A stretch of 64,000 bases of DNA from Microbotryum violaceum (lineage: Eukaryota), in assembly GCA_001244265.2 (NCBI GenBank), contig CDLV01000004.1, positions 2,294,001 through 2,358,000 of the forward strand, in the 5' to 3' direction. Below the pieces are notes generated by a model. It made no database searches and was not told where the DNA came from. It saw only the letters and a program-made list of their open reading frames with translations. Made by a program: the position numbers and the translations under genes. Positions 13,491-55,814 of the stretch are shown here, one piece after another. Positions within the stretch are counted from its first letter, which is position 1. Each line of letters starts with the position of its first letter.

Positions 13491-16144
13491 CTTGCACACC
13501 ACGTGCTTGGGACGAGCGCGACTCGGTGTGACGGCGAGAAAGAGCGCGAGGCGCGAGTGTGTGGGGCCGTGGGGAGGCGGCGGCAGAATGAGAATGATAA
13601 TTTGAATTCCAGCTAGTCTATCTACTGCAGAGAACAAAAACTGGGGCCCGTACCCATGTCGGGGGGTGGGGCGGAGGAGAGGAAAAGAAAAGAAAAAGAG
13701 AGGGAAAGAGAAACCAGTGGGAACCCGTTAAATTAACGGGAGGATCAAATTCAAAAAACAGCAGGATAATCGAACAGTCTACATGATATCAGCGCAGAGG
13801 TTAAGAAAACACAATACGAAATACAGCAAAGAAACAAAATCCATTCATCTTGCATTCATTGCCGAAACAGCCTGCATGTCGCTTGTTGCCGGACATGGCT
13901 TCAAACACTCGTGCAATGAGATCCGGACGGTTGCATGCTTTATCGGCCCCAGTGCAGCCTTGATTTCCGGCGCTTCGGGGTCGTACGTCATCGTGATGAG
14001 CAGCGGAGGCTTTCCGTGTTTGACAACGCATGTCATCGCATCCTGGTATCGCTGCGTGATGTCGCGATTTGGTTCGGGGTCAAGCCGTTGATGCCTTGGG
14101 TCGTGGTGAGGCGTAGGTTCTCCTGATGTAACCAGATGTGTTGAGTCAATCGGTCTTGACTTGGGAGTACATCCGTAATTCACAAACTCCAGGAAGGGAC
14201 GTTGGGTGCCATGCGGGATTGAGAAGTGCTCGTCGCGTTTGGCAAGTAGTGCGCAAAGAATTGTGAACGCGAGACTCGCCACCTCGACCCCTTTACTGGA
14301 CCTTTGTCCTAGGTGTTCAAAAGTTCAATGTCAGTCTGTGCTTGCGCCTTCGGCAGAATGGAACATCAGAGAAAGAGCCGAAGACGCGTACGTTCGCCAT
14401 CACCATCCTCTTCGTCCCCTTCCTCGCCGTCTTCATCCTCATTGTCGCGGTCTTCGTCCTCCTGTTCGTCTTCGTCATCCAGACCGAGACCGGCAGGTAC
14501 CTCGCCCAATTGGACACCATTGTCGATCTGCTCTCAGTTTCTGGCGATGGGCGGCCCAGCTTGGTTGAAACCGCAAAGAGGAATGTTGGGGTGGAAGCCA
14601 TCTTCCCCCGGGGAAGATTAGTGGGTACCGGAGAGGCATCGCAGACGGATGGAGCGAGCTAACGATTTGGTACTTGGGCCGACCATCGGGACATCGATCA
14701 CCGTGCACCTGGAGAATAAGGTCTTGCGGTCCACGATCTCCCGTGTTGGTGTCGGAATCGCAGATAAGCATCGCCATTTCCGTGCTTGACGTAGGAAGGT
14801 TGTGGGTGCGTCGGTCTCGGCCTGGTGGTAGGCAGAGGCGCAGGACCCACTCTTTGGCCGTATCCCAACCCGCGCGAGGTTTGGCCGATGCGAACTCCCT
14901 CACAAAGCGATTGCCGGTGCGCAACATGGACTCGAGCTTGGTCAGCGTTGATCTTCGAATGCGAGTCTCTGCGCTGTCGGGTCCTTGAAGTCGTGTGTCG
15001 GTGGCCTCGGCCGGGTCGATCAGCCATGTCTGGGCAAAGGCTGGGCGTTGATTCACGGCAGGGATCAGGGCGCCGAGTCGATGGTAGAGGCGACCAAACA
15101 CGCGAAACACGGGGGGTCCTAGCGTGCCCACTTGAGTTTGGTCCCAGAGGGCAGCGAGCGAAGTGAACGACAACGCGTTGTTGTACGACCGGGCATTCTC
15201 GCGGAATGCAACCGCTTCTGTGTGGGTGGGTAGAACAGTTCAGCATGTGGGTCTACTGCAGACGAACGTTGTTGGACGGAGCAACTGACCGCTATCCGAG
15301 CCTTGAAGAAGCTGCCGATACTCGAGATTGGGCTGGGGAGGGGGAGGTAGCCAGCCGCACCTTGCCCTGCGAGCAGCACGCGCTGAAGTGTCGTACGTCA
15401 TCGTGATGAGCAGCGGAGGCTTTCCATGTTTGACAACGCACGCCATCGCATCCTGGTATCGCTGCGTGATGTCGCGCGGTCTATTCTCGAACGTCGAGCC
15501 CAAAGTCATCAAACGTCCAATTGGGTTCGGGCCCAAGCCGTTGATGCCTTGGGTCGTGGTGAGGTATAGGTTCTCTTGATGCAACCGGATGTGTAGAGTC
15601 GATCGGTCTCGACTTGCAGTATATTCATAAATCACAGACTCCAGGAAGGGACCGTGGGTGCAATGCGGGATTGAGAAGTACTCGTCGCCTTTGGCAAGTA
15701 GTGCGCAAAGAATTGTGAACGCGAGACTCGCCACCTCGACCCCTTTACTGGACCTTTGTCCTAGGTGTTCAAAAGTTCAATGTCAGTCTGTGCTTGCGCC
15801 TTAAACAGAATGGAACATCAGAGAAAGAGCCGAAGACGCATACGTTCACCATCACCATTCTCTTCGTCCCCCGCCGTCTTCATCCTCATCGTCACAGTCT
15901 TCGTCCTCCTCTTCGCCTTCGTCAGCAAGACCGAGACCGGCAAGTACCTCCCGCGATTGGACACCTTTGCCGATCTGCTCTCGGTTTCTGGTGATTGGCA
16001 GCCCAGCTTAGCAAAGCCCGCAAAGAGAAATGTTGGGGTGGGACCCATCTTCCCCTGCAGGAAATAGTAGTGGCTACCGGAGAGGCAAGGCAGACGGATG
16101 GAGTGAGCTGATGACTTGGTACTTGGGCCGACCATCGGGACATC

Positions 16145-16334
16145 TGTTGCAACAAGGACTAAGAGGTACTCCACGACTCAGCTCCGAGATACACGAGTGA
16201 GATGATGAGAATAGCGTGGAGAAGGAACCCAGAAGGAAAAAAAGACGCAAAGACAAAGATAGGCGCGCGCGCAGAATAAAGTATTAACCAAGGCTAATAG
16301 CAATGAGTTAGGCTCTCAGACCCCACTTCTAACA
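16145..16334 (-). repeat. Copia 3' LTR
   Basis: Direct repeat of 20660-20849 with two transitions seen. Confidence 0.95.
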
Positions 16335-19300
16335 CTCCCACCGGTCAAAGAGACTAACGAGACCATTCCAAGTAGCGCACGAAGTTGATCAAAGCGTTGA
16401 AATCCCAAAGGCTTCGTCATAATATCCGCGGCATTGACGTGGGTAGGGCAGTATTCAAGTTTGACCTCGCCAGAAGCAACCCATTCTCGAACAAACAAAT
16501 GAGCAATGTCAAAGTGCTTGGTTCGCATGTGATCGACCGGATCCTTGGCGATCTGGATGCATGCGGCGTTGTCTTCTTGAATGATAGTAGGCTGTGCTTG
16601 TGGAATGCCGACATCACCAGCCAAACAACGGAGCCAGATTGCTTCACGAGTGGCTGAGGATGCAGAGAGGATTTCGGCTTCGGTAATGGATGTAGTGATC
16701 ATAGATTGTTGCTTCGACTGCCAGGAGATAACGCCGCCAGCGAGCATTGATGCATAGGCTCCCACCGATCTGCGAGATTCCGGGTCATCCGCAAACGAGG
16801 CATCGGAGTAGACCATCAATCGAGTTGTGGAACTGTTTCGATAAAGAATTCCCAAATCGATGGTGCTGTTGAGGTAGCGAAATATACGCTTGACCGCAGC
16901 CCAATTGTCGACAGTTGGACAGGAGTTCTTTTGAGCAACGGCACAAACAGCAATCGCAATATTGGGTCAACATTGAGTGGACGCGTACTGCAGGGAACCC
17001 ACAGCCGATTGGTACAATGACACATTGGCAAATGGAGTAGCATCGTTCGAAGCGAAGGGTGATTGTCCATGGGCGTGACTGCACGGCGCTTGGATGGAGA
17101 AGCGAAATCGAACTTCTCGAGCATAGTGCGGACATACTTGCTTTGGTGAACGAGGATGTAATCCTTGGTGCGATGAATTTCGAAGCCCAGGAAGTAGGAG
17201 ACGGGTCCGAGACGCTTGAGCTGGAAGGCCTTGTGAAGCGATCCGAGCTCGGAGTCCAAGAAGGACTGATTGTTGGACGCAATGAGACCGTCGTCAACAT
17301 AGAGAGTGATGATAGCAAACGAAGTGCCCAAATGTTTGATGTAGAGGCAAGCATCGGCAGTTGCCCTCATGTAGCCTCGAGACACCATGAGATCATTGAC
17401 GGCTCGATACCATTCACGGGGCGCCTGTTTGGTTCCATACATGGAACCCACAAGCTTGAGGCACTTGCCAGGGGATTGAGGACGATTCCATCCTTTTGGG
17501 TATCAAACATAGACATCCTCGGTCATCTTGCCATTGAGAAAGGCGCAGTCGAAATTGAACTGTTCGAGATACAGGCCCTGAGCAGCAGCCAGAGCAATCA
17601 AGAACAAAATTGTCAAAGAACGAGCGACAGGAGCGTAGGTGTCATGGTAGTCGATGCCTGGGTGTTGAGCAAATCCTTGAGCAACAAGACGAGCTTTGAA
17701 ACGAATGATTTTGCCGTTTGCATCGCGCTTGATACTGTAGGCCCAGATCATGCCGAGTACCCGAATTCCTTTGTGCCACTTGACTTCCTGAAAGACTCCA
17801 TGATGATCAAATTGTAGAAGTTCTGAGACCATTGCCGCACTCCAATGGTTGCGATAGGGTGACTTCATGGCTTCCTCGAATGTCTTGGGTATCTCGATGT
17901 CTTCTTTGGCAAACACGGCAGCACAGTAGGCATTGTAGGAAAGCTTGTCGTGGAACACGGGTGGAGTATCCAAGACATCCACCATGATAGCCGAAATGAT
18001 GGGAAGTATATTTTTCCGGAAGTTGAGGTCGACGACGAGAACCAGCAGGAAGGATGTTGGAAGGATCAACATTCTCGAATTGGCCAGGATTTGGACCAGT
18101 GCAAACGATGGCGTAACCTTCACGAGGAGCGAGAGCAACTTCCGCCTCACTGTCGAGTGGTTCTTCTGCATCATGATAGTTATCAGGTCCATCGTCAAGT
18201 CCATCATTGTTGTCATTGTTGTCATCCTTATGAGGAACGACTGCAAGATACCCCCCTGTTGACCAACTCCAATTGGAACCACCGGAGGAGGCTGTGGATC
18301 CGGCAAAGTTGGATCCACAACAGGTGAAGTTGGTGTAGACGGCAACACATCTGGCGGAGGATGAGGAGGTTGAGAATGATGAACGGGATCAGAAGCGTCC
18401 GCACGATCTTGAGACGAAGTGACGACGGAAGGAGTCAAGGAATGTGACGTGACGCGAAACGTAGACCTGTTTCGACGATTGGACCCAGACACGGTAGTTG
18501 TATTCACCGGAGTACCCGATGAAAACTTCCTGAATGGAGCGAGGTGCAAGCTTGGAGCGATGCTCCTTGGGAACGTGGACAAACGCCGTAGATCCGAATG
18601 GCTGAAGATGAGCAAGACTAGGCTTCTTGCCGAGAAGAACTTCGATTGCCGTTTTTCCTTGAATACGAGGATGTGGTCGACGATTGAGAACAAATGTCGC
18701 GATGGCCAGAGCATCTGACCAGAATCGCATGGGAAGGCCAGAGTTGAGGAGCATTGATCAAACGAGACCCATGAGAGATCCATTGAGTCGCTCTACTTGA
18801 CCATTTTGCTCCGGAGTATAGGGGGCTGTGAATTCCACAATGATGCCCTGCTTTTCAAGAAGAGCCCGGAACAATGAGTTGTCAAATTCACGGCCATTGT
18901 CCGATCTGACCCTCTTGATTTTCTGACCCGTTTGACGCTCGGACTCGGCTTGAAATTTCGACCATGCTTCGATAATCGTCTCAGCCCTCTTGTCCTTTAG
19001 CACGATTGTCCATTTAGCCGTCGAATACTGATCCACGATAGCGAGATAGATAGTATCGCCATGGTGATTGGGATGTTCGACAAACCCGAGATCAATGAAG
19101 ACGCGGTAGAGTGCATGAGGCGCTTCGGTACTCTTGTTGGAGAAGGGTGATCGCTTTGACTTGGCCTGGATGCACGAAAAGCAAGGAGTAACCTTTTCGT
19201 CCTTCAGAGTGATGCCAGTGATAGCTCCGGATTTGACGGCCAAAACGATTGCCGCAGGAGATTGATGGCCCAACTTCCGATGTGCTTCCATCAACGTACA

Positions 19301-20659
19301 GGTTCCAGTGAGACAATTGGCTCCGACCATTGAAGGCGGTGAGGATGACATGATAGGCTGAACGGGAGCTGCATCCATGACAAACCCCCGACCAGGAAGC
19401 GAGCGCAGAATCGACTTGCCGCGGATGCTGAAAATGAGATTGCTTTGGGGACCAACAGCGTACGTCATCGATTCCAACAGACGGTCGATGGCGATAAAAC
19501 CGAATTGAGCACAGCACCGGGCATGTAGTAGACCCTCTTAATGGTGATACAAGCGCCATATGAGGTAAGAAACGTCACTGAGCCATGACCGGGAGATTCG
19601 ATTTGAGATTGATCGGCGACAGAAATTTTGAGAGGCTCAGAGACAACGTCCGATAGGACCGACTTGTCTCCAACGCAATGGACCTTAGCACCCGAGTCAA
19701 TGATCCATGGAAAACGTGGCATCGTTCGCAAATAGGAGAAAGTGTAGGTCATCAATGCAGATTCATCTACACCAATGGCAGCTACGTTCGAATTTGAGTC
19801 CGAGGAAGCGGGAGCGCTCGCATCCTTGTTCCTGCTTGGACAGAGACGCCAACCATGCTCGTGTCCCAGTGCTTTGCAGCGCGAAAAATGTTTGTTTCGG
19901 GAATCAGCCATTTCGACGTTCATCAGGAGTTTCGGATAGAACGTGTTCCAATCCATGTGGATGTCGATGTCGGAGGCAAGGTTCCCAATGATTGAGTCAT
20001 ACTGGGCTGGGAGCGACCAAACGAGCATGCCTGCAAACAGCCAATGCGGAAGCGGAGCTCCGAGGTTCTGAAAATCGGACATGGCGATCTTGACCTTGTT
20101 GACGAATTCCTTAAAAGGAATATCCCCAGAGTAAGGTTGCGCTAGAGTGTTGAGGAGGTCCATAGTGCGACTCGGGCGACCGTGAGAGTGGAGACCACGG
20201 AGGGTGTCCCACATCTCGTACGCCGAGGTAAGATGAATCAAGTGAGACATCTGTTCCTCAGAGATCGAATTGGCGATGTACTTGCATGCCAAATCGTTGC
20301 GGCGGATGGCCTGTTCGCGATATTCCGCGACCTTGTCCGCAACTTGAACGCTGGTGAGCCTGGGCGAGGCGTCCGAGTGCGCAGAACCAGAGCCCCCCCC
20401 CCCCCCCCCAAGCCCGCTAAAGCCGGAGGAGGCTGGTTCAACTGGCGCGACGGACGCAGTTGCATGTGAGATAACGAGCGTGGACCGATAGTCCGCAACA
20501 AGGGAGTCGATGGATTGATTGACGACATCCCATATTTTGTCGGCTCGAAGATTGATAAACGCACGTTGTGACCAGCTCTTGTACCCTTGTGTGTCCTTGA
20601 GATACAAGTGATTGCCCGACCCGTTGGGGAAGTCGGATTCGCCCGTTGAGCTCATAACC

Positions 20660-20849
20660 TGTTGCAACAAGGACTAAGAGGTACTCCACGACTCAGCTCC
20701 GAGATACACGAGTGAGATGATGAGAATAGCGTGGAGAAGGAACCCAGAAGGAAAAAAAGACGCAAAGACAAAGATAGGCGCGCGCGCAGAATAAAGTATT
20801 AATCAAGACTAATAGCAATGAGTTAGGCTCTCAGACCCCACTTCTAACA
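20660..20849 (-). repeat. Copia 5' LTR
   Basis: Followed on the minus strand by PBS GGTTATGAGCTC. Confidence 0.95.
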
Positions 20850-29865: not shown

Positions 29866-31430
29866 ACTTGAGATTACTTCGGAGCGGACTTTGGGATCAC
29901 ATCGGTGCGGACTTTGGGATCACATCCGAGGCCATTCTTGTACCACGTTCATGGGGACTTTGGTACCACATAGTGTAGACACCTGTATCTCTTGCAATGT
30001 GTGATGTATCACTCTGGGAACAGTAGTTTGATGCATGTATAGGTCTATAGTACTTCTGGCCGGTGAGACTAGGCGGACAATGCAGTAGTTGCTGCATCGA
30101 TGTTCTGCCCCGCTTGGCCTCTCCGCGCCCATGGTGTCAGCAGCGGTCCGGCGCCCGAACCGCCAAGGCCGACACTCCCGAACGTGATTGCGCCGACTCG
30201 GATTAGACCAGAATTGGCACCGGTCCCTTGCTTCTCTCATCCATGAAGAACAGTTCATAGAGATCGAGAGAAGATACAGATTCTAATAAGTCACGCTTCG
30301 ACATCGGCGGACGTTTGCTTGTATGATCATTGCAGTTGAACGATGTTCAAATGTCCCCGATCTCTTTTGCAGGCCCCCGAGCAACGACGGCCATCCGCAG
30401 AACCTCCACAACAGGTCGACCTTCGCGGGTTGAATCCAAGCTTCTATAAAAGTGATGGCCAGTTCTGGACGTCATCAGATCCCCATTGCCACGTCCGACG
30501 GCTGTTGATGATGAGTAGGGGCGCGTTACCGTAAGGTCGCTCGGCGACAGCGAGACAGCATTCATATCGGTGTGGAGCCCAGTCATGCGTCTGTTGATAT
30601 ATCCCACGAATAAGAATTAGGTCGATCACAGGACGAAACAAAACGCAGTGCAGCACGCAGCTTCGACACACCTCTGTAGCTATGAACCTTGGGAGCTCCA
30701 GGACAGGGAGGTTGCTTACAAATTTCCATTCGGATTTCTGCTTGCGAGGAACGAGCGGCCTGAGACGGAGCTCGTTGTGCTCTGCAGTGGTGAAGATGAT
30801 GTTTGAGAAAAATTCCTCCGCGCCTCGTGTTCGACAGTTCGTCGGTCTGCATTCCGCCGAGAGAGCTCGCAGGTATGCCGGTCCAAATCTTCTTGTCTTT
30901 CCGGGCCAGGAGTGGTGCGGAGACGACGTTGTCAGGTAATACCTCCTCTGAACTGTCTTCTTCGGCTCCGTAGTATGAATCGCTTGTCGAACCCTCTTCG
31001 GAGTCGCTGGAACAGTTCTTGCGAGAGTTCGAAAGCCCCGAGGCTGAGGAGGTGCGAGACATCGAGGACTTGGGGGAAACCACGACCAAAGCTGCCGAGA
31101 GTTTCGAATCATCCTCATCCTCATATGAATCCGATTCATTATCTGATAGGTATGGCTCTGGCGAACTTTGTTGTCGCAGCGCAATGGGCAAGCGGTCCCC
31201 TTTGTATTTGACTATAATGCAATTGGTTCATCGCTTAAGTTGTTGACATGAGCGTACTTGGCGTCGTCTAGAAGGTACCCCATCCAGGTGTTGTTGTGCT
31301 CGAAATGGACGAGCTATCCGCTCAACAAGGAAGGAAAGGAGTGCTTTGTGTGAGATTTGTATATGTACGAGTGGGCGAGTGGGGTGTAAAGACGAGGAGC
31401 GTACGAAGCTTCAATGAGGGTTTTTTTATT
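29866..31430 (-). mobile_element. Internally deleted, inverted copy of the Mutator-like element at 34855-41735
   Basis: 29866-30354 is the reverse complement of 41236-41735, including the 23-bp repeats. 30355-31280 is a more diverged inverted copy of 34855-35785 (NELRLRPLV..KSEW.FV..LPVLELP.F.ATEV). Confidence 0.85.
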
Positions 31431-31516
31431 TTGATTTTTTTGCTCGGATCAGCGGCATTCGTGAGTTTGCCGGTTTCTAATAAGGGTTCTAACGGTTGCA
31501 GGCCTTATGGAGCTAC

Positions 31517-31690
31517 TACCTTTTCTGGCCTTTTGGCTTAGATCAAGTGTAGCATCTGTTCTTATCAGTTTTGATTACTGATAGTTGTTCAACGAACAAC
31601 ATCCAATCAAATCTTATCTTTCATTGCCAGGGTGTGCAGTTCTTGGGCTTCCCAAGATGTCCGTGCTATCTCACTTCCAGCACGGTATTA
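31517..31690 (+). ncRNA. U2: U2 snRNA-like gene (variant or pseudogene)
   Basis: GGCCTTTTGGCTTAGATCAAGTGTAGCATCTGTTCTTATCAGT; stem IIa TATCAGT/ACTGATA; IIb GTTGTTC/GAACAAC; hairpins TCTTGG/CCAAGA and CCGTGCT-ATCTCACTTCC-AGCACGG. The Sm site is non-canonical. Confidence 0.9.
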
Positions 31691-31824
31691 CGTCAGTGGC
31701 GCCATTTTGTCTTTACTCTGTGCACTCTAATGGGGGGGCCAAGGAAAGGCGATTAGCTTCGCCTGGAATTCGTGCCCGCTCGTTTTATTAATCATCTGCC
31801 TCAGCACCACGAGTTCACGGAAAT

Positions 31825-32645
31825 ATGGACTACAACAACAACACCAACAACGCCAGCCCTGCTGCTATACCACCTCTTCGCCCTGACCCTCCCAATCCTC
31901 CCGGCCAAGCCCTCACCATCACCACCAAATCATACTCCGCCGCGGTCGTCGCCGGCTCCGCTGCGAAGCACGGCAACGCCACCGCCAACGCCTCAACTGC
32001 CGTCGCTGCCCATCCACTGATGCACAACATTGAGAATTGCGTCATCATCAACACCCCACCCTCAACCTCGGTCGAGCAAGTCCTCCTCGCGTTTGACAAA
32101 CACTACCCTGGCCTTACCGGCGCAATGCCATGCGTCAGCAAGGGTCAGCGCGGCCTCCGCTTTCCCAAGACCGCCGATCTTGACACCCTGGTTGCCAATG
32201 GCCTTACTGTTGGCAAGACTCTGTGCAAAGTTGAATAGCTGTACAGCTCTACTAAAGGAGGTGTTGTACAATGCACCCTTACGGGCTTTTTCTCCGACCC
32301 CGAGGGCCTCTGCCTATTCGATGAGCAGATCGCTGCCTATGGCACGGTCCTCCGTCGTCGCATCCAATACATTGGAAAGACGAAACACATCTCTGGGGTG
32401 TACGACTTTATCCTTGCCCTTAAGGATGTAGATGTTTTGCCCCCTGCCTCACTTTCTATTGCTCGTGACGGTGTCACTGAGCGAATCCCACTGAGGATCA
32501 CCGGTGGCATGCGCCACTGCGTCTTCTGCCGTTCCGCGGCTCACGTCCGTAAGGATTGCCCCGTCGCCCCGGCGTGCAAGTCCTGCGCGAGCACCTCGCA
32601 CGCCACCCAGCACTGCCCAGGCCGTCACGCGTCGAGCCCCCAGGG
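31825..32645 (+). mobile_element. 5' fragment (ORF1, double zinc knuckle) of the L1/Tx1-like LINE
   Basis: Homologous to the 46888 copy from the ATG onward; CVFCRSAAHVRKDC..CKSCASTSHATQHC; premature TAG at 32236; cut by an LTR at 32646. Confidence 0.92.
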
Positions 32646-34306
32646 TGTGAAAGGCACGAGATCGCTCTCGAGCCTCACTGGCGACCTAAGCTGGCAGGTG
32701 CAAGTTGTATGGATTGCAACTAGCTTCTGGTGTCAGCCCGATTATCTACGAGAGTGCTGAGATATGGAACACCAGTACTCACCTAGCTTCTGGTGTCAGC
32801 CCGATGAGGAGGGAACTGAAGAAGCTAGGTGCGCGCGATCTCTATTTCTAGTGCCTGTGGCCCATAGTAAGGCGCGCGCCTTACACTCTCCCCGCCTTGA
32901 AACAATTCCCCTCCTGCGGTCGAAAATCCTACTCCTCGTTCCAATGCCTCCGTATCCTCCAGTGCCTCGGCAGGCTCCCATGAATCGCTGTCTGACGGCC
33001 ACAAGACCCACAAGACGAGGTATTGCTGCTTGCCAGAACGGACCCTCTCGTTGACAATCTCTTCAATGATGTACTCTGGCTCACCACCTACATCCACTGG
33101 GCCCAGTCGCGCAGGTTCACGGTTGGGGAACAGGGCTGTGTCGTTCTTGCGGTAGGTCTTGAGCTTGCCCGTGTGAAAAAACGGTACCACTGCATCGTCC
33201 CCGTTCAGTTGCAGGATGTAGGACGAGATTTCCGGTTGGGCTTTGACAATGCGATAGGGACCGTCAAAGCGGTCCATGAGCTTGGCTGCGTGGCGCTTGC
33301 GGGTGTGGAGCCGCTTTCGGCGATCACTCGAGTCAAGAAGAACAAGATCCCCAACAGCCCAAGAGGGTTCATTCTGGCGCTTCTTGTTGGACTGTGCTGC
33401 CTGCCGAACCTTGGAAATGGCGAGCTGGTCCCGGGCGTCTTCGCAGGCTTGGAATCGAAGGGCAAGCAACTCCTCAACGGACGGCAAGTTGTCATCACTG
33501 TCGACGCGGGCAAGCGGGGCGAGGGAGGGCGTGTAGCCAAGCACGAGCTTGAAGGGGGTTTTCCCGGTAGCGACATTGAGAGACGATACTCACAGACAGC
33601 AAGGCACTCCGCCCAGTTGGATTGCTCCTTGTTAACGAGCGCTCGAAGAATCTGGAAGGCAGTCTTGTTCGTTTTCTCGCTGCGACCGTCCGTCTCCGGG
33701 TGAAACGCCGAAGAGAGCTGGAGCTTGACATTCAGGCGCTTGTGCAGGGCAGTCCAGAACTTGCTTGTGAACAGCTTGTCCTGGTCCGAGACAATGCTTT
33801 GAGGGAGGCCAAAAAGGCGGTGCCATCCTTCATGGAAGCGTGCGGCGACCTCTGCTGCGGTGTCAGCTCCGCGTGCAGGGAGCAAACGGACGTACCCCGA
33901 CAGGCGGTCGGTGATCGTCAACACGCGGTCCGGGCAGCGGTCCGACAAAATCGATGGCAATGTCGGCCATGGGTCGTGTCGGGACAGGGAGCGAGTGCAG
34001 TTTGCCAGCAATGCAAGTGGTACGAGCCTTGGTCCTCTAACAAGAATCACATTGTTGGACGTAGTGCTTGACGTCCCGGGACATGTTTGGCCAGAAGTAT
34101 GCCTGCTGAACGGTCCGGTACGTTTTCATATCACCTAGGTGCCCCTGCGCATCATGAGCATCGTGAAGGATGGACTCACGGAGCGGGGCTAGTGATGAAA
34201 TGATAAGCCGGCCCCGTAAATACAGCAATGCATCAACAATCTTGAAGTCCAATGTGACCGAGCCAATGTTAGCCATGGCTTGCTGGCAGAATGGGTCGGT
34301 CTCGTA
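32646..34306 (-). mobile_element. Ty3/Gypsy chromovirus 3' fragment (integrase, chromodomain, PPT, 3' LTR 32646-32885)
   Basis: HDAQGH..CDSC, TDRLSGY, SDQDKLFTS, HPETDGRSE, GPY, EYIIEEI..YLV.W..WEP; purine tract then TGTAAGG on the minus strand. Confidence 0.93.
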
Positions 34307-34853
34307 TGTCAGAACCCAATCATATCTGATTCTCTTTCAATCCTATTTACTTCTCATGCCACTATTTCACTCCTACTTTGCACTCCTTCTTTAGCCTATT
34401 CCCACTACGCCGGATCCCAGCGCCTGATTGAGACTCGGTTGACACGTTGGCTTGGGTTGAAGTCGCGCGCCTCGCGGGCGCTCGTCTCTCTTCCTTCTTC
34501 ATCCATCTTCCATCCTCATTCTTGTGCTCGTACTCAACCCCTTGAGTCGGGATCCAGGTCAGTCCTTTTGCAATGCCCGATCCATCTTCCATCCTCAATC
34601 TTGTGCTCGTACTCAACCCCTTGAGTCGGGATCCAGACTTCTAATAGGTCATGAGCCCAAAAGCCGCTCACAAAGCTTCTACAGTAGACGCAAGCGGACC
34701 ACCACCATCCAACACTTCACCTCCACCAGAAGTCACTCCTGAAATCAACACCATGCCATCTGACACTACGTCGTCGGCCCTGACCGCGCTTCAAGCCGAC
34801 TACGCCGCGCTGCTCGCCAAAATCACGCGCCTGCCAGCTGCCAGCCTGCAGTG
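34307..34853 (+). mobile_element. Second Copia family: 5' LTR (34307-34646), PBS and start of gag, truncated
   Basis: TGTCAGAA...TTCTAATA ends, PBS GGTCATGAGCCC at 34647, internal ~57-bp duplication in the LTR, ORF MSPKAAHK...ADYAALLAKI. Confidence 0.75.
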
Positions 34854-34854
34854 A

Positions 34855-37800
34855 AGGGTTTACCTTCAAGGTAGATGGCGCCAGTCGCACTCATCATGTC
34901 GACAGGAGAAATGAGCCAACTGCTCCAAAACAAAGGGGGCCGACCACCCATCGCGTTGCAGGAACAAAGCTCCCCAGAGGGATACGCATCGGAAGTTGAC
35001 TCGGAAGTGGATGAGGATGAGGACAGTCTGCAAGTCTTGGCAGCTTTGGTCCCGGTTCCCTCAAAGTCCTCGATATCTAGCCCCTCCGCAGTCTCGGGGC
35101 TTTTAATCTCTCCAAAGAGCCGTTCGAGAGACTCCGACGAGGATTCGGCAGACGAGGGTTACTACGGAGTCGACGACGACAATTCGGACGAGAAATCAAT
35201 TGACAACATCTTCTCGGCACTACTCCTGGCTCGGAACGACAAGAAGATCCTTGACCGGCACACGTACGAGCCCTCTCGACAGGACAAAGAGTTATCGAAC
35301 ACGACGCGCGAGGCAATTTTCTCAAACATGATCCTCACTACTGCAGAGCACAACGAGCTCCGCCTCAGGCCGCTTGTTCTCAATTGTCGCAAGCCGAGGT
35401 CCGAATGGGAATTTGTACGCAAACTTCCTGTCCTGGAGCTCCCAAAGTTCATGGCTACAGAGGTATGTTGAAGCTGCATGCTGCGCTGCGTTTTGTTTCG
35501 TCCTGTGAACGACTTAACTTTCATTGGTGCGATCTATTAACAGAAGCATGACTGGGCTCCACGCAAATATGAACGCTGTCTCGCTGTCGTCGAGCGACCT
35601 TACGGTGACGCGCCCTCGTCTACTCATCATCAACATCCGTCGGAGGTGGCAGTGGGGATCGAGTGGCGTCCGGAAGTGCCTATCACCCTTCGAGAAGCTT
35701 GGAGTCAACCCGGCGAAGGTCGACCTGTTGCGGAGGTTCTACGGATTACACATCGTTGCTCGGGGGCCTGTAAAAGAGTTCGGGTCAAGGATGGCAAACT
35801 TGGGTACAAGAAACGAGACAATGACAAGGACCCGGGAAAACATGCTCTACTCAACTCAAGGTGATCATCCCGGATAGGAAATCAAAGGAGCTTGGGTTGG
35901 GTGGCTGATAAGACTCTCTGTGACCTTCTTCGTCCCTTGTGTAGATCCTCGTTCAGGCCGACGATCTTTCATCGGCGCTGGTGTACACCCTCGGCAACCA
36001 TGAAGGACGCCAACCACCGCCGAACGTCCGACGTCCAGCCCCTTTCATTCGTGCGTTGGCGCATCAGGAAGTCTTTCGGCAGGCCAACACGCCCACGCTT
36101 GCATTTCAAAGTGAGTGTGTGCTCCAAGTTTGCAAGAAGTTAGTTTTCACTTCTCAAGACTGACCATCAGTTCCTTTCTCGATAATGGACTCGATCATTT
36201 CACAGATATGAACCAGCGGATGTCGTTCTGGGAGAAACAGAACGAGATCATTCTCCCGCAGTACAGGAAAGTCGGCGCAAAGCAGCTGCGCAATATGTTC
36301 AGGGCAAAAGGTCGACAGAACGCGCAGCATGGATCCGCCTTGTACTCGCTAGCGCGCATGGCTGAGCTGAGACCGTTCACCCTTCAAAATGCAACGGAGC
36401 CCGAGACACGCGGAGTGGCCTAGTGAGTGATCACGATCTAAGCTGCTTGCCGATCTGATGAGCTAACAAGCGGCGGAGGTATTTACCCTTGTCAGCTTTC
36501 AACCTTTTAATGAGAAAACGAAGCAGCCGTTGATCTGCGTCCTTGCCTCCCTCCACTCCATCGACGTGTTGATGTCCTTCGCCACAGTTGGGAACGATTC
36601 AGGCGATTGGTCGCGGTTTGTTGGACTTGACTCAAGCTGGCGATACCTGAACGAGAACCGCGCCCCCCTCACCGCCCTCGTCTCGACTGGCTTGAAAGAC
36701 AAACTTGCGCTAGGTGAGAGCCCGGGAAGCACTTGAAAGGAAGGTCCGGACGAGTACAAAGATTCATTTCATCGCTTATGTATTGTCTTCTTCAGGTCCT
36801 ATGCTTCTCTCCAGTGATGTGAAGGCAGACACTCTCGTCATTTACTTGGACACGGTAAACAGGCTGGTCGAAGAGCGCGCCGCGATCCTTGTAAGGAGTG
36901 CGTTGTAAGATGGGTTGACCAGGGTGTGCTGCGCGTCACGACAGTTTTGAGAGGAGTCGCTCACGCCCTTCTGTACCGTCGACGATTTGCATGCGTACTT
37001 CAGAAGCTCGTGAGAATGGGCCCAATCTACCCGGCTCGTCCCCCAGGTTGCCAAATCTTCTCCAAAATGCCGAATTCATCTTGGAAAATCAGTGGCAACC
37101 ACCGAATTTCATGATCGGCAAATGTCGGACTGAGCTCAACGCCTTGACACTCTGTAAGCGCCGCTGCTTGCTAGGGCTACTATATGAGATGTGCAGACTG
37201 CTCTCACGATTTTGAATTCCTGATGATCGTCGTCTTCTGCATCTACGTTACTATAGGGAAAGAAAAGCACAACCTCAACTTTCACATACGCCTTTGCCAA
37301 TTCCACGTGGTTCAGGCCATTATTCGGTGGTCGAGTGACAGGAATGACGGCGAAAGGGGCAACACCGTCAAGCCTTCTCGGATTGCTCGCAAGACGTTGA
37401 TCAACATTTTGTATGAATTTCGATCCATCATCCAGCGCTTTCGTTTCATACGCACCGAGCATGAAACAGATGCCGAGGCGACAGCTCGGCGCTCGGCTGA
37501 GTTCGAAGGGAAGAAACGGGCGTTCTTTGAAAAATCGGACGCATGGATCGACAAAGAGTTCCGAAGTCGTCGCAAACCAGCAGCAAACAAATCAGACGTC
37601 ACCAAGAAGTCGGAACTGGGTTGCAACAGCCGAGAAGAAGACCAATTACAAGCAAAGAAGGATAACTTTCGGGCGTATTTCAATGTCAACTGGTTCGTAC
37701 AAGAGTGGATCGGTGAGTCTTACTTATTCCTTCTTTACGTGTTCTCTCACAGTTTTTTTGGCTCACGCATTTCCACAATTCTGAAGGAACATACACAGAT

Positions 37801-40800: not shown

Positions 40801-41735
40801 TGGGATCTGTACACGGAAACAACATGTCGACAGCACGAACTCGTCTTGCATCGGACCAATCCGATTCGACCCTAAACCGACCAACGCTCGCCTTTCCTTC
40901 ATTTTCGCCAGTATTCGCCACGCGCGATATCGAACACCTACCAAAGAAATGCAATTACTCTGCGGTTCCTCAAGAGAGTAGCCCTTCCGCTGTTGTTACT
41001 CCCAGCAAAGGGCGTCATTCGGCAGCGGAAAGCGTGACCCGAGCTCCAGTCGGCGGAAAGCTTGCTCGCAATGTCGAGACCGAAAGTTGAAGTGTGATCT
41101 AGGTCATCCATGCTCGAAGTAGGTACAGTCTAGTAATTTATCATACCAAGAAAGAGCTGACAACTGGTTTGTTCACTTTGAGCAGCTGCACTAAGAAAAG
41201 GAGAGGTAAAGCGAGCCAAGTTTTTACATGTGAATACATTTAAATATCGTTCAACTGCAATGATCACACAAGCAAAAGTCCGCCGATGTCGAAGCGTGAC
41301 TTATTGGAATCTGTATCTTCGCTCGATCTCTATAAACTGTTCTTCATGGATGAGAGAAGCGAGTAACCGGTGCCAATTCTGGTCTAATCCGAGTCGGCGC
41401 AATCACGTTCGGGAGTGTCGGCCTTGGCGGTTCAGGCGCCGGACCGCTGACACCACGGGCGCGGAGAGGCCTGGCGGGGCAGAATATCGATGTAGTAGCT
41501 ACTGCTTCGTCCGCTTCGTCTCACCGGCCAGAAGTACTATAGACCTATACATGCATCAAAATACTGTTCCCAGAGTGATACATCACACATTGCAAGAGAT
41601 ACAGGCGTCTACACTATGTGGTACCAAAGTCCCCATGAACGTGGTACAAGAATGACCTCGGATGTGATCCCAAAGTCCGCATCGATGTGATCCCAAAGTC
41701 CGCTCCGATGTGATCCCAAAGTCGCCTCCGATGTG
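34855..41735 (+). mobile_element. Mutator-like (MULE) DNA transposon, 5' terminus lost
   Basis: Transposase gene followed by a ~500-bp terminal region ending in 23-bp tandem repeats (GATGTGATCCCAAAGTC.. at 41661, 41684, 41707). Confidence 0.85.
34875..41090 (+). CDS. Multi-exon MULE-type transposase with SWIM zinc finger and Ulp1/C48 SUMO-protease domain (probably inactive)
   Basis: GLDSSWR, FMIGK..ELNAL, RLCQFHV, NTNNVTERAFK; SWIM CPCRAFKQTGNKCAHLWAC; C48 triad NHWILV, VYDSL, QQTDGNACGAFV. Confidence 0.8.
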
Positions 41736-41737
41736 GG

Positions 41738-44700
41738 TTTTTATTTATTTGATAGACTTCATTAACAGCATAATTATATTAATACCTAGAAATCTTCGGA
41801 AAAGTCGGAGGGAATGCTGTTACGCACACTGGCAGAAGCCAGTAGTGTAGGACTCATTGACCCTGAACCAGGATCAACCATACCCACTAAAACCCCTTTG
41901 GTGTCTTACAGAGACACTAGGCGACCCTTGGACTCCTGGATAGAGGCTCGAAGCCCCTCGAACTCCGTTTCGGTGATCGGTTCCAAAAGATCCGGCGAGA
42001 ATCGACGACGGCGACAGAGCTTCCAGATCGAGTGAAAGAAGAGGACTCGTAGTTCGACAAGTCGACATTTCGAGCGAGACACGACCGGGCATACAAAGTC
42101 CACAAAGACTGGGTGGGGGTCGGGGACAGAGCAGACCAGAGGCGCCGGGCAAATGGGCAGCCGACCGCGAGGTGAACCAGGCACTCGGGTGCTTCCGAGA
42201 GGCACATCACACAGGAGGTAGATCGATTGTTGGGATGTGGGCTGGTTGGGGAGGCGACTTGGCTTCCCGGATGGAGGGACCCCAGGGAGAGAAGGTGGCC
42301 GGTATCCTCGGCGTCCGAGTGAACCCGGCGAACCTTGCGCAAAGCCTTCCACCAAGCGTTCCAGCGTTGCTCAGGCAGATCGAATACCTTCTGGTGTCCC
42401 TTGGGAAGATAAGGGGGAAGATGAAGACTTGGTGGCGTTTGGACGCGTTCACAAACGAAGACGGAGTCATCACCTCGCCATCGGGCCCTCGAAAAAGCGT
42501 CGGGTTTACCGAGAGTTGTATTCCGTGGCCCGCTGGGAAATAGAGTACGTGCGTCGCCCATTGCTCGAGGTTCTGGCTCTTGGAGAGTTCCGGGGGATTG
42601 AGCGTGGTCACCAACGCCCAGGCTTCGAAGTATCGGACCCAACGAGCAGGAAGAAGTTTTGTCGTTTTTCTCACCGCATGGTCCCACTTTGGGGGAGGAT
42701 GGCAAAAGTAAGCCCACCAGATCCAAGTCCAAGGGCAACGATGCTGTTTGGGGGCCGGTCTGGACAAGGTGAAAGGGGTTGGTTCGTTTGGTGCCTGGAG
42801 GCGGATGCGGATGTCGAAGAGGTGGCGTGTGAAGCAGCCGTCCGGGGCCCGGAGCTGGAAGACCCACTTCGTGTGATCGATTGCTAGACGCCGAGGCAGA
42901 TCAATCAAACCGAAGCCGCCGTGATCAAGAGGGGTGCAGAGGCGTGACCGGGAGACCTTCGGACGTCGCTGAGTACCATCCGAAGCTCAACCGTGAATGG
43001 CGAGCATGGCGGCCTCCTCGATCTCCTTGACAACGCTCTTGGGGGCGGGAAGGAATCGGCTGTAGTACAGGATCTTTGTGTAGCAGTAGATGTTGATGAT
43101 CGAACACTTGGCTGATATGGGAGATCGTACATCGGAATCGAGCGTATCCGAGCGATGGTCAAGGCCTTGACATCTTCCCAGCCCGCATCCTCGGCGATCT
43201 CCACCCCGACCTGAACACCAAGGTAGCGAAACTGCGAATCGCTGAGACGCCAGGTCCCGATCTGGGGCGATCGACCGATCCCGAAAAGCTCCAAGGGGGT
43301 AGAGGAAAGATTTGACGTTGCTGAGCTTGCTGGCACTTGCCCGTTCGTAAAGCTCGATCGCCCGATTGAGGTGGTCGAGGTCCGAGAGGTTGTGGAGTGC
43401 GCAGCAAGCGTCGTCGGCAAAAAGGAGTTCGCGAACGTTTTGGAGGCCCGCAGTATCGATGCCCTTGACTCTGAATCGAATCTGACAGGCAAAACCTTCG
43501 ATCGCCAGGACGAAGAGAGACGGAGCCAAAGGATCACCTTGCCGAATGCCCGACAGGATGTCGAAAGTGGCAGAGAGCCAACCGTTGAGGAAGATCGAGG
43601 CAGATTGATTGGTGTAGGTCGCTCGGTACCATTGGCGGGCTTTGGGGCCGAGGCCAACGGCGCAGAGGACTGCATCAAGGTACGGGTGGGAAAGACGATT
43701 GTAAGCCTTTTCAAAGTCCATCACCGCTAGCATGCCAGACACGGGTGTTGAGCCTGGAAGTCCAGGGTCCATGAGACATTGGACCTCAGCGATGTTCGTG
43801 CCGATCCAACGGTTCGGAGCAAAGCCACGTTGGGTTGGGCCAATCAGGAACTCGAGCAGGGGAGCGAGGCGCTGGTTGTGGGCTTGCGAGATGATGCGCT
43901 TGTCTGCATTGATAAGCGATATGGGGTGTTTGTTCGAGAGCTGATCCCTCTCGCCGCATTTGTGGATGAGATGGATGTGGGCGGTGTTGCGGGGAAGAGG
44001 TCCAGGCTGACGGGCCTCGGTGGGGATCGAGTTGATGACGTCTCGAAGAATTGGGCCAGTGGCCGGCCACGTAGCGCGATAGAACTCAACCGGGAGGCTG
44101 TCAGGCTCTGGCAAAGAGTTCGACTTACACGCCTCTTTGAGCCTTTGTCATCTCCTCCAACGGGTACGTTTCCTCGAGCTTGAATGAGTCCGCGGGAAGA
44201 GGCGAGTTGGAGCGAGGCCGTCGGTGATCGCCTTCAGGGCCGCGTCATCGATGGGCGGTCCTCATAGACCCGCTCGAAGTAGTCGCTGGCCGCTCCAAGC
44301 ATCGAATCAGGGTCGGAATGAACATCATCGTTGACCGTGAGCGGAGGGATCAGGTCGGATGCTCGCACTTTGCGCAGGCGGATGAAGATGGAAGAGGGAC
44401 CCGCCAGAGATGGGTCGAGGCGGGACCGCAGGGCCGCGCCGTAGCGCGAGTGGTCAGCCCTCTCTTGCTCCGACCCGCCACGACGGAACCGAGCGAAAGT
44501 CCGGGCCAGAGCCTGCAGCTCGGGCAGCAGGCGGTGTTTGGTGGACGTCCAAGCTGCTGGTGGATCGTTGGGCGTCTGGAGGAGGGCTTTGTTGTAAAGG
44601 GTGCGGACAATGGAGGTGAGGTACTCGCAGGTCGCGTCGCCCTCGATCACGTGCAAACCCAGCTTGAATTTGCCCGGACCGATGTCAATTGCGCCCGGCA

Positions 44701-46888
44701 CTTGGAACCGTGCCACAACCATTGAGTGCGTCGGTTTGAGAACAGGAGCCCAAATTTTGTGATCATGGAAGAGGTCGACCCAATCAGGCGAGACATAGAT
44801 GCGGTCAAGGCGACGGCACGTGCCGGGCGCTGAGCGATTCGTCGTGGCTCGTCCTTTGGGATGATGGAGCCGATAGGCGTCGAAAAGATTGTTGGCCGTG
44901 GCAAGGTCGCGCATCTCCTGACCCCATAATTCGTTCTGTTTTGGTTCTCCGAATCGAGGGGCTGGGACTCAACACAATTCCAGTCCCCCCGACTAGGAGC
45001 GCAGGCGGCGAGGGTTCGTCACGTACAACTTGTCGGAGGGCGGTGCTGAGGTGTGAGAGGAAGCGTTTTTTGTCTGGCTTGTCGGAGGAAGGCGCGTATA
45101 TTGATACAACCCGGACTTTTGAATCACCCACACAAAAGGTGGCGTCGGTGACTCGATCCGGGAAAGAGAAAGAGGCACGAAGAGTGTTTGGAGGCGACTC
45201 GGGATCCAAAGTCATGACCACGGAGTCGCTCTTCCAAAGTATGGCAGTGTTGTTGAAAGGAGTGAAAAGAGCGGAGAGCTTTAAGTCTTGGCACTCCTGA
45301 GTCCACTGGCCCACCCTTTCGGGGAAGGTCGGCCAGTTTCGCTCAGGAGAAAGACGTCGGCGTTATGGGAGCGGAGATTGGAGAAAAGAGAGGCACGCTT
45401 ACGGTCTTCATTGATTGACTGCACGTTGGCAGCAACAAAAGACACGTTTGGGATTTTAGTTGTGCTCATCATCTTGGTCCATAGCGTCTTCCACGTCCTT
45501 AGGAGGTGCTTCTTGGTCTTCGGCTTCTTCGTCGGCCTCGTCGTCGGTGTCGGCGTCATCGGGTCGGGCTTTGGGCGCGGCCGAGGGCAACGGCGTGGGC
45601 GAAGACGGCTCGGGGCTCGGCTCGGAGGCTTCGAGGGCAGACGCAGTGGGAGGGGCTTCACGAGTGGCTGGCTTGGAGAGGGCGGCAATCGACTTGGATC
45701 GAGTTATGATCGACTTTGGCGTGGCCGGAGGAGGGCTTGGGGATGGAGAGGTGGTCTCTGAGCTGGGGGACTCGGAGGATTTTTCAACGAGGGAGTAGGC
45801 AATTCCCTGATTGGAGGCAGGCTGGGGGGCAGGAGGAGTGGCAGTTTTGCAAGGGAAATTGAAGGAGAACTCGGGGCGGGCATTCTTCGACAGAGAATCG
45901 GGCTGAGCTCTGTTGGACAGATCTTCAGTCTGGGCAGCCAGATCCTGTTCCACTCGACGTTTTTTGGTCGTGCGGTCGTGGGCAGAGGCCGGGGAGATCG
46001 ACTTGGACACGGCGGCGGGGGCGGCGGTGGTAACGGTGGAGGCTTGCGGGGCACGTGACGTGGGGGTCCCTGGGGGCTCGACGCATGACGGGCCGGGCAG
46101 TGCTGGGTGGCGTGCGAGGTGCTCGCGCAGGACTTGCACGCCGGGGCGACGGGGCAATCCTTACGGACGTGAGCCGCGGAACGGCAGAAGACGCAGTGGC
46201 GCATGCCACCGGTGATCCTCAATGGGATTCGCTCAGTGACACCGTCACGAGCAATAGAAAGTGAGGCAGGGGGCAAAATATCTACATCCTTAAGGGCAAG
46301 GATAAAGTCGTACACCCCAGAGATGTGTTTCGTCTTTCCAATGTACTGGATGCGACGACGGAGGACCGTGCCATAGGCAGCGATCTGCTCATCGAATAGG
46401 CAGAGGCCCTCGGGGTCGGAGAAAAAGCCCGTAAGGGTGCATTGTACAACACCTCCTCTAGTAGAGCTGTACAGCTTCTCGACTTTGCACAGAGTCTTGC
46501 CAACAGTGCCGCCGTTGGCCACCAGGGTGTCGAGATCGGCGGCCTTGGGAAAGCGGAGGCCGCGCTGACCCTTGATGACGCATGGCATTGCGCCGGTAAG
46601 GCCAGGGTAGTATTTGTCAAGCGCGAGGAGGACTTGCTCGACCGAGGTTGAGGGTGGGGTGTTGATGATGACACAATTCTCGATGCTGTGCATCAGTGGA
46701 TGGGCGGCGACGGCAGTCGAGGCGTTGGCGGTGGCGTTTCCGTGCTTCGCAGCGGAGCGGGCGCCGACCGCGGCGGAGTATGATTTGATGGTGGTGGCGG
46801 GGGCCTGGCCGGGAGGATCGGGAGGGTCAGGGCGAAGAGGTGGTATAGCAGCATGGCTGGCGTTGTTGGTGTTGTTGTTGTTGTCCAT
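41738..46888 (-). mobile_element. Full-length L1/Tx1-like non-LTR retrotransposon (ORF1 zinc knuckles; ORF2 APE endonuclease, RT, zinc finger), frameshifted
   Basis: ORF2 motifs ANVQS, LSET, SIYAP, RLDRIYV, DFEKAY, GIRQGDPLAPSLF, LFADD, RYLG, GGFGL, CVMC..HLAVGC; AT-rich 3' UTR ending ATCAAATAAAT(A)n. Confidence 0.95.
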
Positions 46889-46891
46889 CCA

Positions 46892-49800
46892 ATAGGAGTT
46901 TCCTTTTTCAAGTCGGCGACGACGCTTCCACGTAATCCAGTCTTCAGGAGGTTTGGACCAGAGTTGCCATTTTCGGAACCAAAGTGCCCTGCTATTCGCG
47001 GGATCAACCTAATTCCGTAAAAAAAAGTTGAAATCGTGTGAACCACTCTCCGACTTGGGGCTGAAAGCGCCCGACTCCCAATGGCTCGCTAACGAGTTCA
47101 CAACCGACTAATAGTCGACTCCCGGCCGACTCCCCGCCGACTCCCTGGGGTCCCTCCATCCGGGAAGCCAAGTCGCCTCCCCAACCAGCCCACATCCCAA
47201 CAATCGATCTACCTCCTGTGTGATGTGCCTCTCGGAAGCACCCGAGTGCCTGGTTCACCTCGCGGTCGGCTGCCCATTTGCCCGGCGCCTCTGGTCTGCT
47301 CTGTCCCCGACCCCCACCCAGTCTTTGTGGACTTTGTATGCCCGGTCGTGTCTCGCTCGAAATGTCGACTTGTCGAACTACGAGTCCTCTTCTTTCACTC
47401 GATCTGGAAGCTCTGTCGCCGTCGTCGATTCTCGCCGGATCTTTTGGAACCGATCACCGAAACGGAGTTCGAGGGGCTTCGAGCCTCTATCCAGGAGTCC
47501 AAGGGTCGCCTAGTGTCTCTGTAAGACACCAAAGGGGGTTTTAGTGGGTATGGTTGATCCTGGTTCAGGGTCAATGAGTCCTACACTACTGGCTTCTGCC
47601 AGTGTGCGTAACAGCATTCCCTCCGACTTTTCCGAAGATTTCTAGGTATTAATATAATTATGCTGTTAATGAAGTCTATCAAATAAATTAAAAAAGACTA
47701 CGGTCTCGACTCGCCCCCGACTCGCCCGACAGTTGCCCGACTAAGCACCGACTCAGCGGCGACTCCCGCAAGCCACTTTCGATAGGCCGCGGCGCGCCCG
47801 CAAACGCTCGGAACGCGTTTTCGAGGACTTTTGAGCGATTTTTGGAGCATGTAGAACCCATTTTGATAATATTTCCGAGGCGCATGCGAAATTTTGACAT
47901 TTTGGGGCCAGAATAGGGTAAAAAACTTTGACAAAAAGGCCAAAAAAGTGCGTTTTTCGAGGCAAAATGTCCAAAAAAATTCCAGATTTTGACTGAAAAT
48001 GTCCAACTATGAGGGCCGCCTAGTTCTGAATAATTTTTGAAAACTACTCTCCAAGCTCTACAATGCTCAGAAATTTTTCTGCGCTGCGCGCAGACTGCGT
48101 TTCCGCCGCGCGCGGGCCGAAAGGTCGCGCGCGCGCACACCAAGAGCGCCGCCAGCGCTCTGCTCCACACCCGCCCCGCCGCGATCCACTGCCGCGCTTG
48201 ACGGGCCAAGCTCTGACAAAGCTTACCGCCATACGAGCATGAGCCAGGCTGACCTTCATTCTTCATCATTGTTGACGCCCTTCGTCTTCGTCTGAACGGC
48301 CTCCTGGTGCAAGACAAGCAAGGGATGCTGCTCAAATTCCTTTTATGTTCTGCAAAAGCCTGTACCGTTTTTCTTGATTGACGGTGATGTGAATTCCCCC
48401 TTCATCACGCCAGTTAGATCGTGTGGAATCCTTGACCTCGTAGTTGATGCTTGACAACTCCGGTTTGAGCAAATTTATGATACAGCGCCCATCGACTTGA
48501 CAAATGCGCGTGTTGCCCTGATGAGACAGGTTGGAGTAAACTCCCGGAGCAATGACACGCAGCTCTTGTATCACAGCATTTGCGAAAAGAGCAAGAGAGT
48601 CAAGACTTTGAACACTTTCATAAGTTGTGCTTGACTTCTTGTAAATGTTCCTCACTGCAGGGAAGGTGACAAGTAAAATGCGCAGTCACGGTGCTAGTCA
48701 GTCATGTGAGGTTTCCCCACACAAGTAGTAGTTTGGCATACCTATCCCGATCGCCAGTCGTTCCCCACATTGTTCACTCGAAGGCAAACCCATAGGTTCT
48801 TCTGGGATTCCATACACGACCAGTATGTCCACCTTGAGAGAACGGAGTGCAGACACATCACCATCAACAGCTCGGACGAGTACGTGGTTTGACATGATCT
48901 GACCATAGACCTCTTGTTGTCCTTTCATTTTGTCCTGTGGTGTCGGAGTCAAATGTAAGCGCAAGAAAAGGCACGCCCCAGCTTGCGTCATGATACATCA
49001 CAAATCAGCGACTAACGTGAGATCGTCCCTCGGTGATGATTGCAGTTGTCGCTTGCTCGTGCAAAGTCTTCTCCCGGATATTTGCCCCTGAAGCGAAGGT
49101 TCCTCTCGTTCCCCACAGACTCTCGATACCTGTCCATTCCCATTGTCTCGACTATCCGTCGAAGCGCGGCAGAACGCACGTTGCCGCGGTGCTCGGTTCG
49201 GTTTTGGGCAAAGGGTTGATCTGACGCTACGTTCTGTGCGCCACCTTTAAACTTGATCTTCTCGAGGTGTCGGCATTGGTGTGCACGTCGTCGAGCGAGC
49301 AAGCTGTCCAAGTCGAGTGTGGGGACAGAGTAGAGGGCCCCCTTCTCTAGAAGATCACGCGGGTACGGGGGCGCTTCCCACTGGTTGGGAACACGGGTCT
49401 GTATCGGTAAATGCATCGATCAACCGATAATTGCGCTCACTCGCGGATTGCTCATGCTCATGGCATGCTTCGGCCAGGATCGTTTGAAACTCTCGATCTT
49501 CTTCTTCTGCATCGGCTTGATCGAAGCCAGCATCAACAGCATCGCTGAGGGTTCAATATACGGTTGTTAGTGATCGTTTGTTGCTCTCAAACACCAAGCT
49601 ACGTACATCAGAGCTTCCTGGTCCATGTCAAGCGCAATCACCGAAAGAAGCGCGTCGCATTCCTCACGTCGCATAATACACGGTAATGGCTCCGATCCGA
49701 CAAGACGCAGACGATCGAGGACTTGGTTCAGACCAGCCTCGTTCACGTTCGGAGGGACACCTTGGCGAACGGTCGACTCGGATGTGTTTCGGAGTACCAG

Positions 49801-55709: not shown

Positions 55710-55814
<105 letters not shown>

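Follow-up and report, generated by a model that had tools for sequence, protein, structure and literature searches.

The window analysed here, the whole 64-kb stretch of Microbotryum DNA, contains a gene for a U2-family snRNA surrounded by transposon remnants (Table 1). An Rfam cmscan search matches the U2 family (RF00004) to positions 31518-31701 of the forward strand with 106 bits (E 2.2e-20), far above the gathering score of 46 bits for that family, and the alignment runs through the model from end to end (1-192/192) with a single non-standard pair flagged. RF00004 is the sole Rfam family to exceed its gathering score in the window, no second U2-like match appears there even in a permissive Rfam scan (E<=1), and a blastn comparison of the window with itself shows the gene and its immediate flanks (31212-31824) to be single-copy within it. 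An unconstrained minimum-free-energy (MFE) fold of the gene (-48.0 kcal/mol) contains stems I, IIa and IIb together with two 3' hairpins, at 31641-31657 and 31661-31685. A preliminary description of this DNA had proposed a full-length U2-like gene in which just these elements are intact, and both the end-to-end RF00004 match and the fold bear this out; the gene end was placed there at 31690, whereas we find it at approximately 31695-31701, with the outer helix of stem IV included in the Rfam match.

Table 1. Features of the U2-family gene and its surroundings (positions in the window)
Feature	Position	Strand	Basis
U2-family snRNA gene, full length	31518..31701	+	Rfam RF00004, 106 bits vs 46, model 1-192/192
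Stem-loop I	31524..31542	+	7/7 consensus pairs in cmscan alignment; MFE fold
Branch-point recognition sequence GTAGCA (vs GTAGTA)	31549..31554	+	C at 31553 = U2 nt 37; sequence; Rfam consensus column U
Stem-loop IIa	31564..31582	+	Six pairs in cmscan alignment; MFE fold
Stem-loop IIb, 7 bp, letters differ from consensus	31584..31600	+	cmscan alignment; MFE fold
Stem IIc 3' strand, pairs with IIa-loop bases 31570-31576	31605..31611	+	7 Watson-Crick pairs; same columns as consensus complementarity
Sm-site region, non-canonical: ATCTTTCATTG, consensus AUUUUUGG	31616..31626	+	Sequence; cmscan alignment
Stem-loop III, short, 7 bp	31641..31657	+	MFE fold; cmscan alignment with deletions relative to model
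Stem-loop IV, 7 bp, 11-nt loop ATCTCACTTCC, consensus AUUGCACUACC	31661..31685	+	MFE fold; cmscan alignment
TATA-like TAATAAG, 34-40 nt upstream of first U2 base; putative promoter element	31478..31484	+	Sequence only
Left arm of old inverted repeat bracketing the U2 gene	30356..31211	.	79.6% identical to 34924-35784; window self-blastn
Right arm of inverted repeat	34924..35784	.	Window self-blastn
Retroelement ORF1 fragment, starts 124 nt after the U2 gene	31825..32645	+	95.6% reverse-complement copy of 46068-46888
Integrase-core relic	33208..34125	-	Pfam rve 27.6 bits, under cut-off 32.6

Conservation extends to the segments that lie between the helices near the 5' end. Both the stretch that pairs with U6 (helix I), located after stem I and ahead of the recognition sequence, and the one that follows the recognition motif are identical to the Rfam consensus. 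In stem IIc the consensus columns are occupied and the complementarity is spelled differently, with changes on both strands; the IIa-loop bases 31570-31576 are perfectly complementary to 31605-31611 over seven bases, a degree of matching that was reached by 25 of 5000 shuffled linkers. We take this complementarity to be the stem IIa/IIc toggle known from yeast U2. On homology we class the gene as a genuine member of the U2 snRNA family, with all of the predicted helices kept.

Three single-stranded recognition motifs, the branch-site reader, the Sm-site region and loop IV, depart from the consensus. The GTAGCA reported in the preliminary description is indeed present, with a C at 31553 read directly from the sequence, and the canonical recognition sequence GUAGUA, which occupies U2 nt 33-38 (PMC12165851), is not found in this copy. 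The canonical form of the Sm site (an A, four to six U residues and a G, flanked by hairpins) is absent from the linker 31601-31640; the corresponding region has two C interruptions, lacks a run of U residues followed by a G, and reads AUCUUUCAUUG in the RNA. The initial account had correctly described both this site and loop IV as non-canonical, although the Sm-site letters given there (ATCTTTTC) differ from those in the sequence at 31616-31626 (ATCTTTCATTG). Loop IV as a whole spans 31668-31678, and its first seven bases (31668-31674, where ATCTCAC had been located) read AUCUCAC in place of the consensus AUUGCAC, without the UG of the AUUGCAC-type sequence to which U2B''/U2A' binds. A C-interrupted Sm site and a loop IV without UG are expected to weaken assembly of the core snRNP. 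Given the departures from the canonical form at three defining motifs (loop IV, the Sm site and the recognition sequence), we refrain from classing the copy as a U2 that is proven to work.

The recognition sequence differs from the canonical one by a single base, which is what a base-call or assembly error at 31553 would produce were the true sequence GTAGTA. However, the deviations in the Sm-site region and loop IV would then need several more errors within 130 nt, and substitution errors are rare in polished assemblies; we regard such an error as highly improbable.

Antiparallel pairing with UACUAAC sets nt 37 opposite the second letter of the branch site (position -4), and the pairing geometry put forward previously, in which the changed base faces this position and a G-U wobble becomes a G-C pair, is right. 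A C at nt 37 (C37) would form a G-C pair with G(-4) instead of G.U and would be mismatched with A(-4), whereas a U can pair with both. The strand-invasion model has positions -2 to -4 of the intron as the toehold, which pairs first with three bases that are flipped out in the loop of the branchpoint-interacting stem-loop (PMC13019295), and we infer that nt 37 is one of these three. In eukaryotes surveyed in 2026 GUAGUA is reported to be strictly retained, save for substitutions in two sponges (PMC13685798). Among fungi the conserved branch motif is described as only CTRAY (PMC5677156), and position -4 is therefore free with a canonical U2 as well.

The preliminary description had claimed an abundance of G at position -4 in this DNA, quoting six branch-like heptamers. 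All six are present, two of them displaced by one base (at 36461 and 37954), and five lie in plausible short-intron contexts as judged by eye, the heptamers being a selection. The abundance itself does not materialise. Among 310 NNCTRAY motifs on both strands the base at -4 is a G in 92, a C in 80, a T in 75 and an A in 63, such that G accounts for 30% of the motifs as compared with a G content of 27% in the window; in 27 strict candidate introns (a GTRNGT donor, CTRAY and YAG within 45-180 nt) it is an A in nine, a T in eight, a C in six and a G in four. The motif counts lie near the base composition, and the six quoted sites are thus what chance would offer. The window is nearly all transposons and is thus a poor sample of host introns, and with the test weakened in this way the counts lend re-tuning no support. 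A relaxed, ORF-aware intron scan yielded 371 distinct candidates and was set aside, as false positives are far too many in G+C-rich DNA.

These counts bear directly on the idea that the copy is an expressed, specialised variant, which would form a minor U2 snRNP beside canonical U2 and have a stronger toehold on introns with G(-4). Its intact structure is consistent with such a role, and there are precedents in human cells, in which engineered U2 snRNAs with altered recognition sequences direct splicing at matching branch sites (PMC13019295), and in the expressed variant U2 genes of humans (bioRxiv 10.1101/2020.01.24.917260). However, the matching class of introns is not seen in the window (4 of 27 introns and 92 of 310 motifs have the G), the Sm-site region has its two C residues and loop IV is without UG, and an altered recognition sequence in an expressed paralogue is reported to be harmful in human and yeast (PMC12165851). 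We consider a specialised role of this kind unlikely.

The surroundings of the gene are those of a transposon nest. We tested 28 long ORFs in the window, six of which contain transposon Pfam domains above the curated cut-off (copia, gypsy and RVT_1 reverse-transcriptase); a seventh is the sub-threshold integrase relic, and a host-gene Pfam family was found in none of the 28. A gypsy polyprotein is 80-92% identical to proteins of Microbotryum silenes-dioicae, with the next-closest relatives in M. intermedium and M. saponariae, and then in Rhodotorula and Sporobolomyces, which identifies the DNA as that of a Microbotryum species, an anther smut of the Pucciniomycotina. Comparison of the two ORF1 copies (31825-32645 and 46068-46888) shows that the one on the U2 side has T/A at 19 of 25 transitions, with TCG the commonest context (5/25), a bias in keeping with the RIP-like hypermutation, targeted to TCG, that has been described in Microbotryum. 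The earlier remark that the T-to-C change in the U2 gene runs opposite to the C-to-T decay of its neighbours agrees with this count.

Several of the repeats in the window can be assigned to individual elements. A retroelement of about 6 kb (41720-47711), with an RVT_1 ORF at 42990-44147 and ORF1 at 45707-47008, both on the reverse strand, has inverted terminal repeats of 401 nt at 100% identity (41889-42289 and 47141-47541) and a further 180 nt at 94%; its architecture is DIRS-like, and the perfect terminal repeats point to an insertion of recent date. Another copy of this RVT_1 element lies near the window end (RVT_1 ORF 61546-63147), and in the comparison of 42859-44552 with 61859-63554 there are 300-nt blocks with 100% identity, which stand 19,000-19,002 nt apart. 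The copia-type element at 16144-20849 has gag, Pol_BBD and RVT_2 at 17506-20673 on the reverse strand and 191-nt flanking direct repeats at 99% identity (16144-16334 and 20659-20849), which are probably LTRs. The gypsy-type element at 54943-60237 has protease, RT, RNase H and integrase at 55818-59926 on the reverse strand, and 225-nt direct repeats (96%) within which there is a 183-nt inverted repeat; an Rfam match to WsnRNA46 at 55038-55247, inside this repeat and the sole addition made by the permissive Rfam scan, falls short of its gathering score (48.4 bits, with 65.3 needed) and is in all likelihood spurious. A 487-nt inverted repeat (29868-30354 and 41236-41719, 93%) directly adjoins, on the outer side, both the left arm near the U2 gene and the terminal repeat of the 6-kb element; it suggests that there is another family of repeats or a context favoured for insertion. 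We also note a 57-nt segment that is duplicated at an offset of 79 nt with 98% identity (34501-34557 and 34580-34636).

We reject an origin of the gene as a retro-copied snRNA pseudogene. The match to the family is full-length, without 3' truncation, and there is no run of A residues after 31701; the only flanking direct repeat is one of 10 nt with nine matches, about the chance level in 431 nt, and does not constitute a target-site duplication. Being full-length and without an A-rich tail, and with a direct repeat only at chance level, the gene is unlike a retro-copied pseudogene. A scan for bacterial-type promoters and terminators gave zero sites, which is irrelevant for a eukaryotic snRNA gene.

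Pattern searches in public collections returned no U2 loci. A 20-base pattern from stems IIa/IIb had no matches in metagenomes, prokaryote genomes or viral contigs. The 47 metagenome loci obtained with a 19-base pattern from loop IV, in which two letters were degenerate, are all chance matches, as Rfam finds U2 in none of the 47 and blastn aligns window positions 31572-31701 over little more than the site of the pattern (25 nt at the longest), besides scattered matches of 11-12 nt elsewhere in these loci. Part of the region 30500-33000 is contained in 19 of 23 listed sequencing runs, with no RNA run listed among those that contain it and a best word share of 0.47; since this region is mostly transposon, these shares are uninformative about the U2 gene.

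Our preferred reading, which we hold tentatively and put at somewhat short of an even chance, is that the gene is a divergent paralogue with little function or none, being either weakly active or silent. The homology, the folds and the substitutions of this copy are established; one or more canonical U2 genes would coexist with it elsewhere in the genome, and it would contribute little or nothing to splicing, with its low activity arising either from poor transcription or from an Sm site and loop IV whose alterations may impair snRNP assembly. Several observations point to a divergent copy. The branch-point reader, the Sm site and loop IV are independent motifs and all deviate together; the gene is flanked by transposon remnants (the inverted arms, the ORF1 fragment and the integrase relic), with host-gene Pfam families in none of the 28 tested ORFs of the window; and G is not in excess at the partner position in either the introns (4/27) or the motifs (92/310). 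Variant and pseudogene snRNAs are common beside canonical genes in other eukaryotes (bioRxiv 10.1101/2020.01.24.917260). GUAGUA is reported to be near-invariant, the two sponges being the exceptions named (PMC13685798), and n.35 variants of human RNU2-2 lead to dominant disease, with yeast variants inhibiting splicing (PMC12165851); as single changes in GUAGUA are thus harmful even in a paralogue, a sole U2 with such a change is unlikely a priori.

Other features fit a divergent copy less comfortably. Small fungal genomes often have one or a few U2 genes, and the 64-kb window, which is the DNA searched, has no canonical U2 among its matches. The gene does not have the look of decay, as it is full-length, with one non-standard pair and a compensated stem IIc, and is without an A-rich tail; its helices are spared and the deviations lie together in the single-stranded motifs, which is unlike neutral decay and would fit motifs typical of a lineage. 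The T-to-C change also opposes the C-to-T/G-to-A bias of the adjoining repeat copy.

In a rival reading, the U2 of a whole lineage has been re-tuned; GUAGCA and the unusual spellings of the Sm site and of loop IV would all be normal in Microbotryum or a wider Microbotryomycete clade, and the present gene would be the working U2 or one of several. C37 would pair with G(-4) and be mismatched with A, which would be tolerated since fungal branch sites are constrained only over CTRAY. Consistent with this are the 106-bit full-length match with all of the helices intact, the co-variation in stem IIc (seven pairs, reached in 25 of 5000 shuffles), the TATA-like element 34-40 nt upstream, the lack of pseudogene hallmarks, and the status of the gene as the sole U2 in the 64-kb window; the deviations are limited to single strands that bind proteins or the intron, as expected if the partners had co-evolved, and the fungal CTRAY motif leaves -4 free (PMC5677156). 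On the other hand, GUAGUA is reported to be near-invariant even in eukaryotes with degenerate branch sites (PMC13685798), and single changes within it are harmful in human and yeast, even in a paralogue (PMC12165851). At -4 a U can pair with either A or G, but a C only with G, so that the change to C37 loses pairing options. A G excess at -4 is absent in the window, poor sample though this transposon-rich DNA is, and a transposon nest is an unusual location for an essential single-copy gene. We therefore think it improbable that the whole lineage has been re-tuned. The overall pattern would be easiest to explain if the lineage as a whole has these spellings of the Sm site and loop IV, with C37 either private to this copy or a lineage trait too.

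The copy has in common with canonical U2 (RF00004) stems I, IIa, IIb, III and IV, the U6-pairing stretch and the complementarity between the IIa loop and IIc, and differs in having GUAGCA for GUAGUA, AUCUUUCAUUG for AUUUUUGG, AUCUCAC for AUUGCAC and a shortened stem III. Classical suppressor experiments with yeast and mammalian U2 are reported to rest on redirected pairing. The copy would act on the same principle as engineered suppressor or orthogonal U2 snRNAs, in which a changed base within nt 33-38 redirects pairing to the complementary branch-site letter (PMC13019295); those are laboratory constructs that act beside wild-type U2, whereas the Microbotryum copy is natural, has a single change in this motif, and faces a weakly constrained partner position. 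Human RNU2-2 (formerly RNU2-2P) is alike in being a U2 copy that is a few bases off and for which the sequence by itself did not reveal the status; after years of annotation as a pseudogene it turned out to be expressed (PMC12165851; bioRxiv 10.1101/2020.01.24.917260). The wild-type human gene keeps GUAGUA, changes to which are pathogenic, whereas in Microbotryum the genomic copy is itself changed and its canonical partner is a presumed one. Rare natural substitutions in GUAGUA are described for the sponges Amphimedon queenslandica and Geodia barretti (PMC13685798); these belong to a different phylum. In literature searches, judged by title and abstract, we met with no natural fungal U2 whose recognition sequence is altered, although sequences from fungi may be included in the U2 alignment figure and the supplements of PMC13685798; the searches likewise gave nothing on U2 in the Microbotryum snRNA literature, and a search for GUAGCA in U2 snRNA returned no literature.

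If the gene is a divergent side copy, as we tentatively prefer, then it represents ordinary snRNA gene variation in a transposon-rich region, and is a caution for automated snRNA annotation. It is doubtful that Microbotryum, and perhaps a wider Microbotryomycete clade, splices all of its introns with a GUAGCA U2 whose Sm site and loop IV have shifted too; were this so, it would be the first lineage of fungi, and one of only a handful among eukaryotes, in which the U2 branch-site reader is altered in nature, and the Sm ring, U2B''/U2A' and branch-site position -4 would be the co-evolved partners. Such a finding would also bear on intron prediction in the genomes of anther smuts. GUAGUA is among the most conserved RNA motifs of eukaryotes, and because it is kept despite degenerate branch sites it must be under constraint beyond its pairing with introns, from the branchpoint-interacting stem-loop, contacts with SF3B1/Prp5 and pseudouridylation. 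Were a whole lineage to live with GUAGCA, nature would have supplied an experiment on those constraints, and on the toehold model for the recognition of branch sites.
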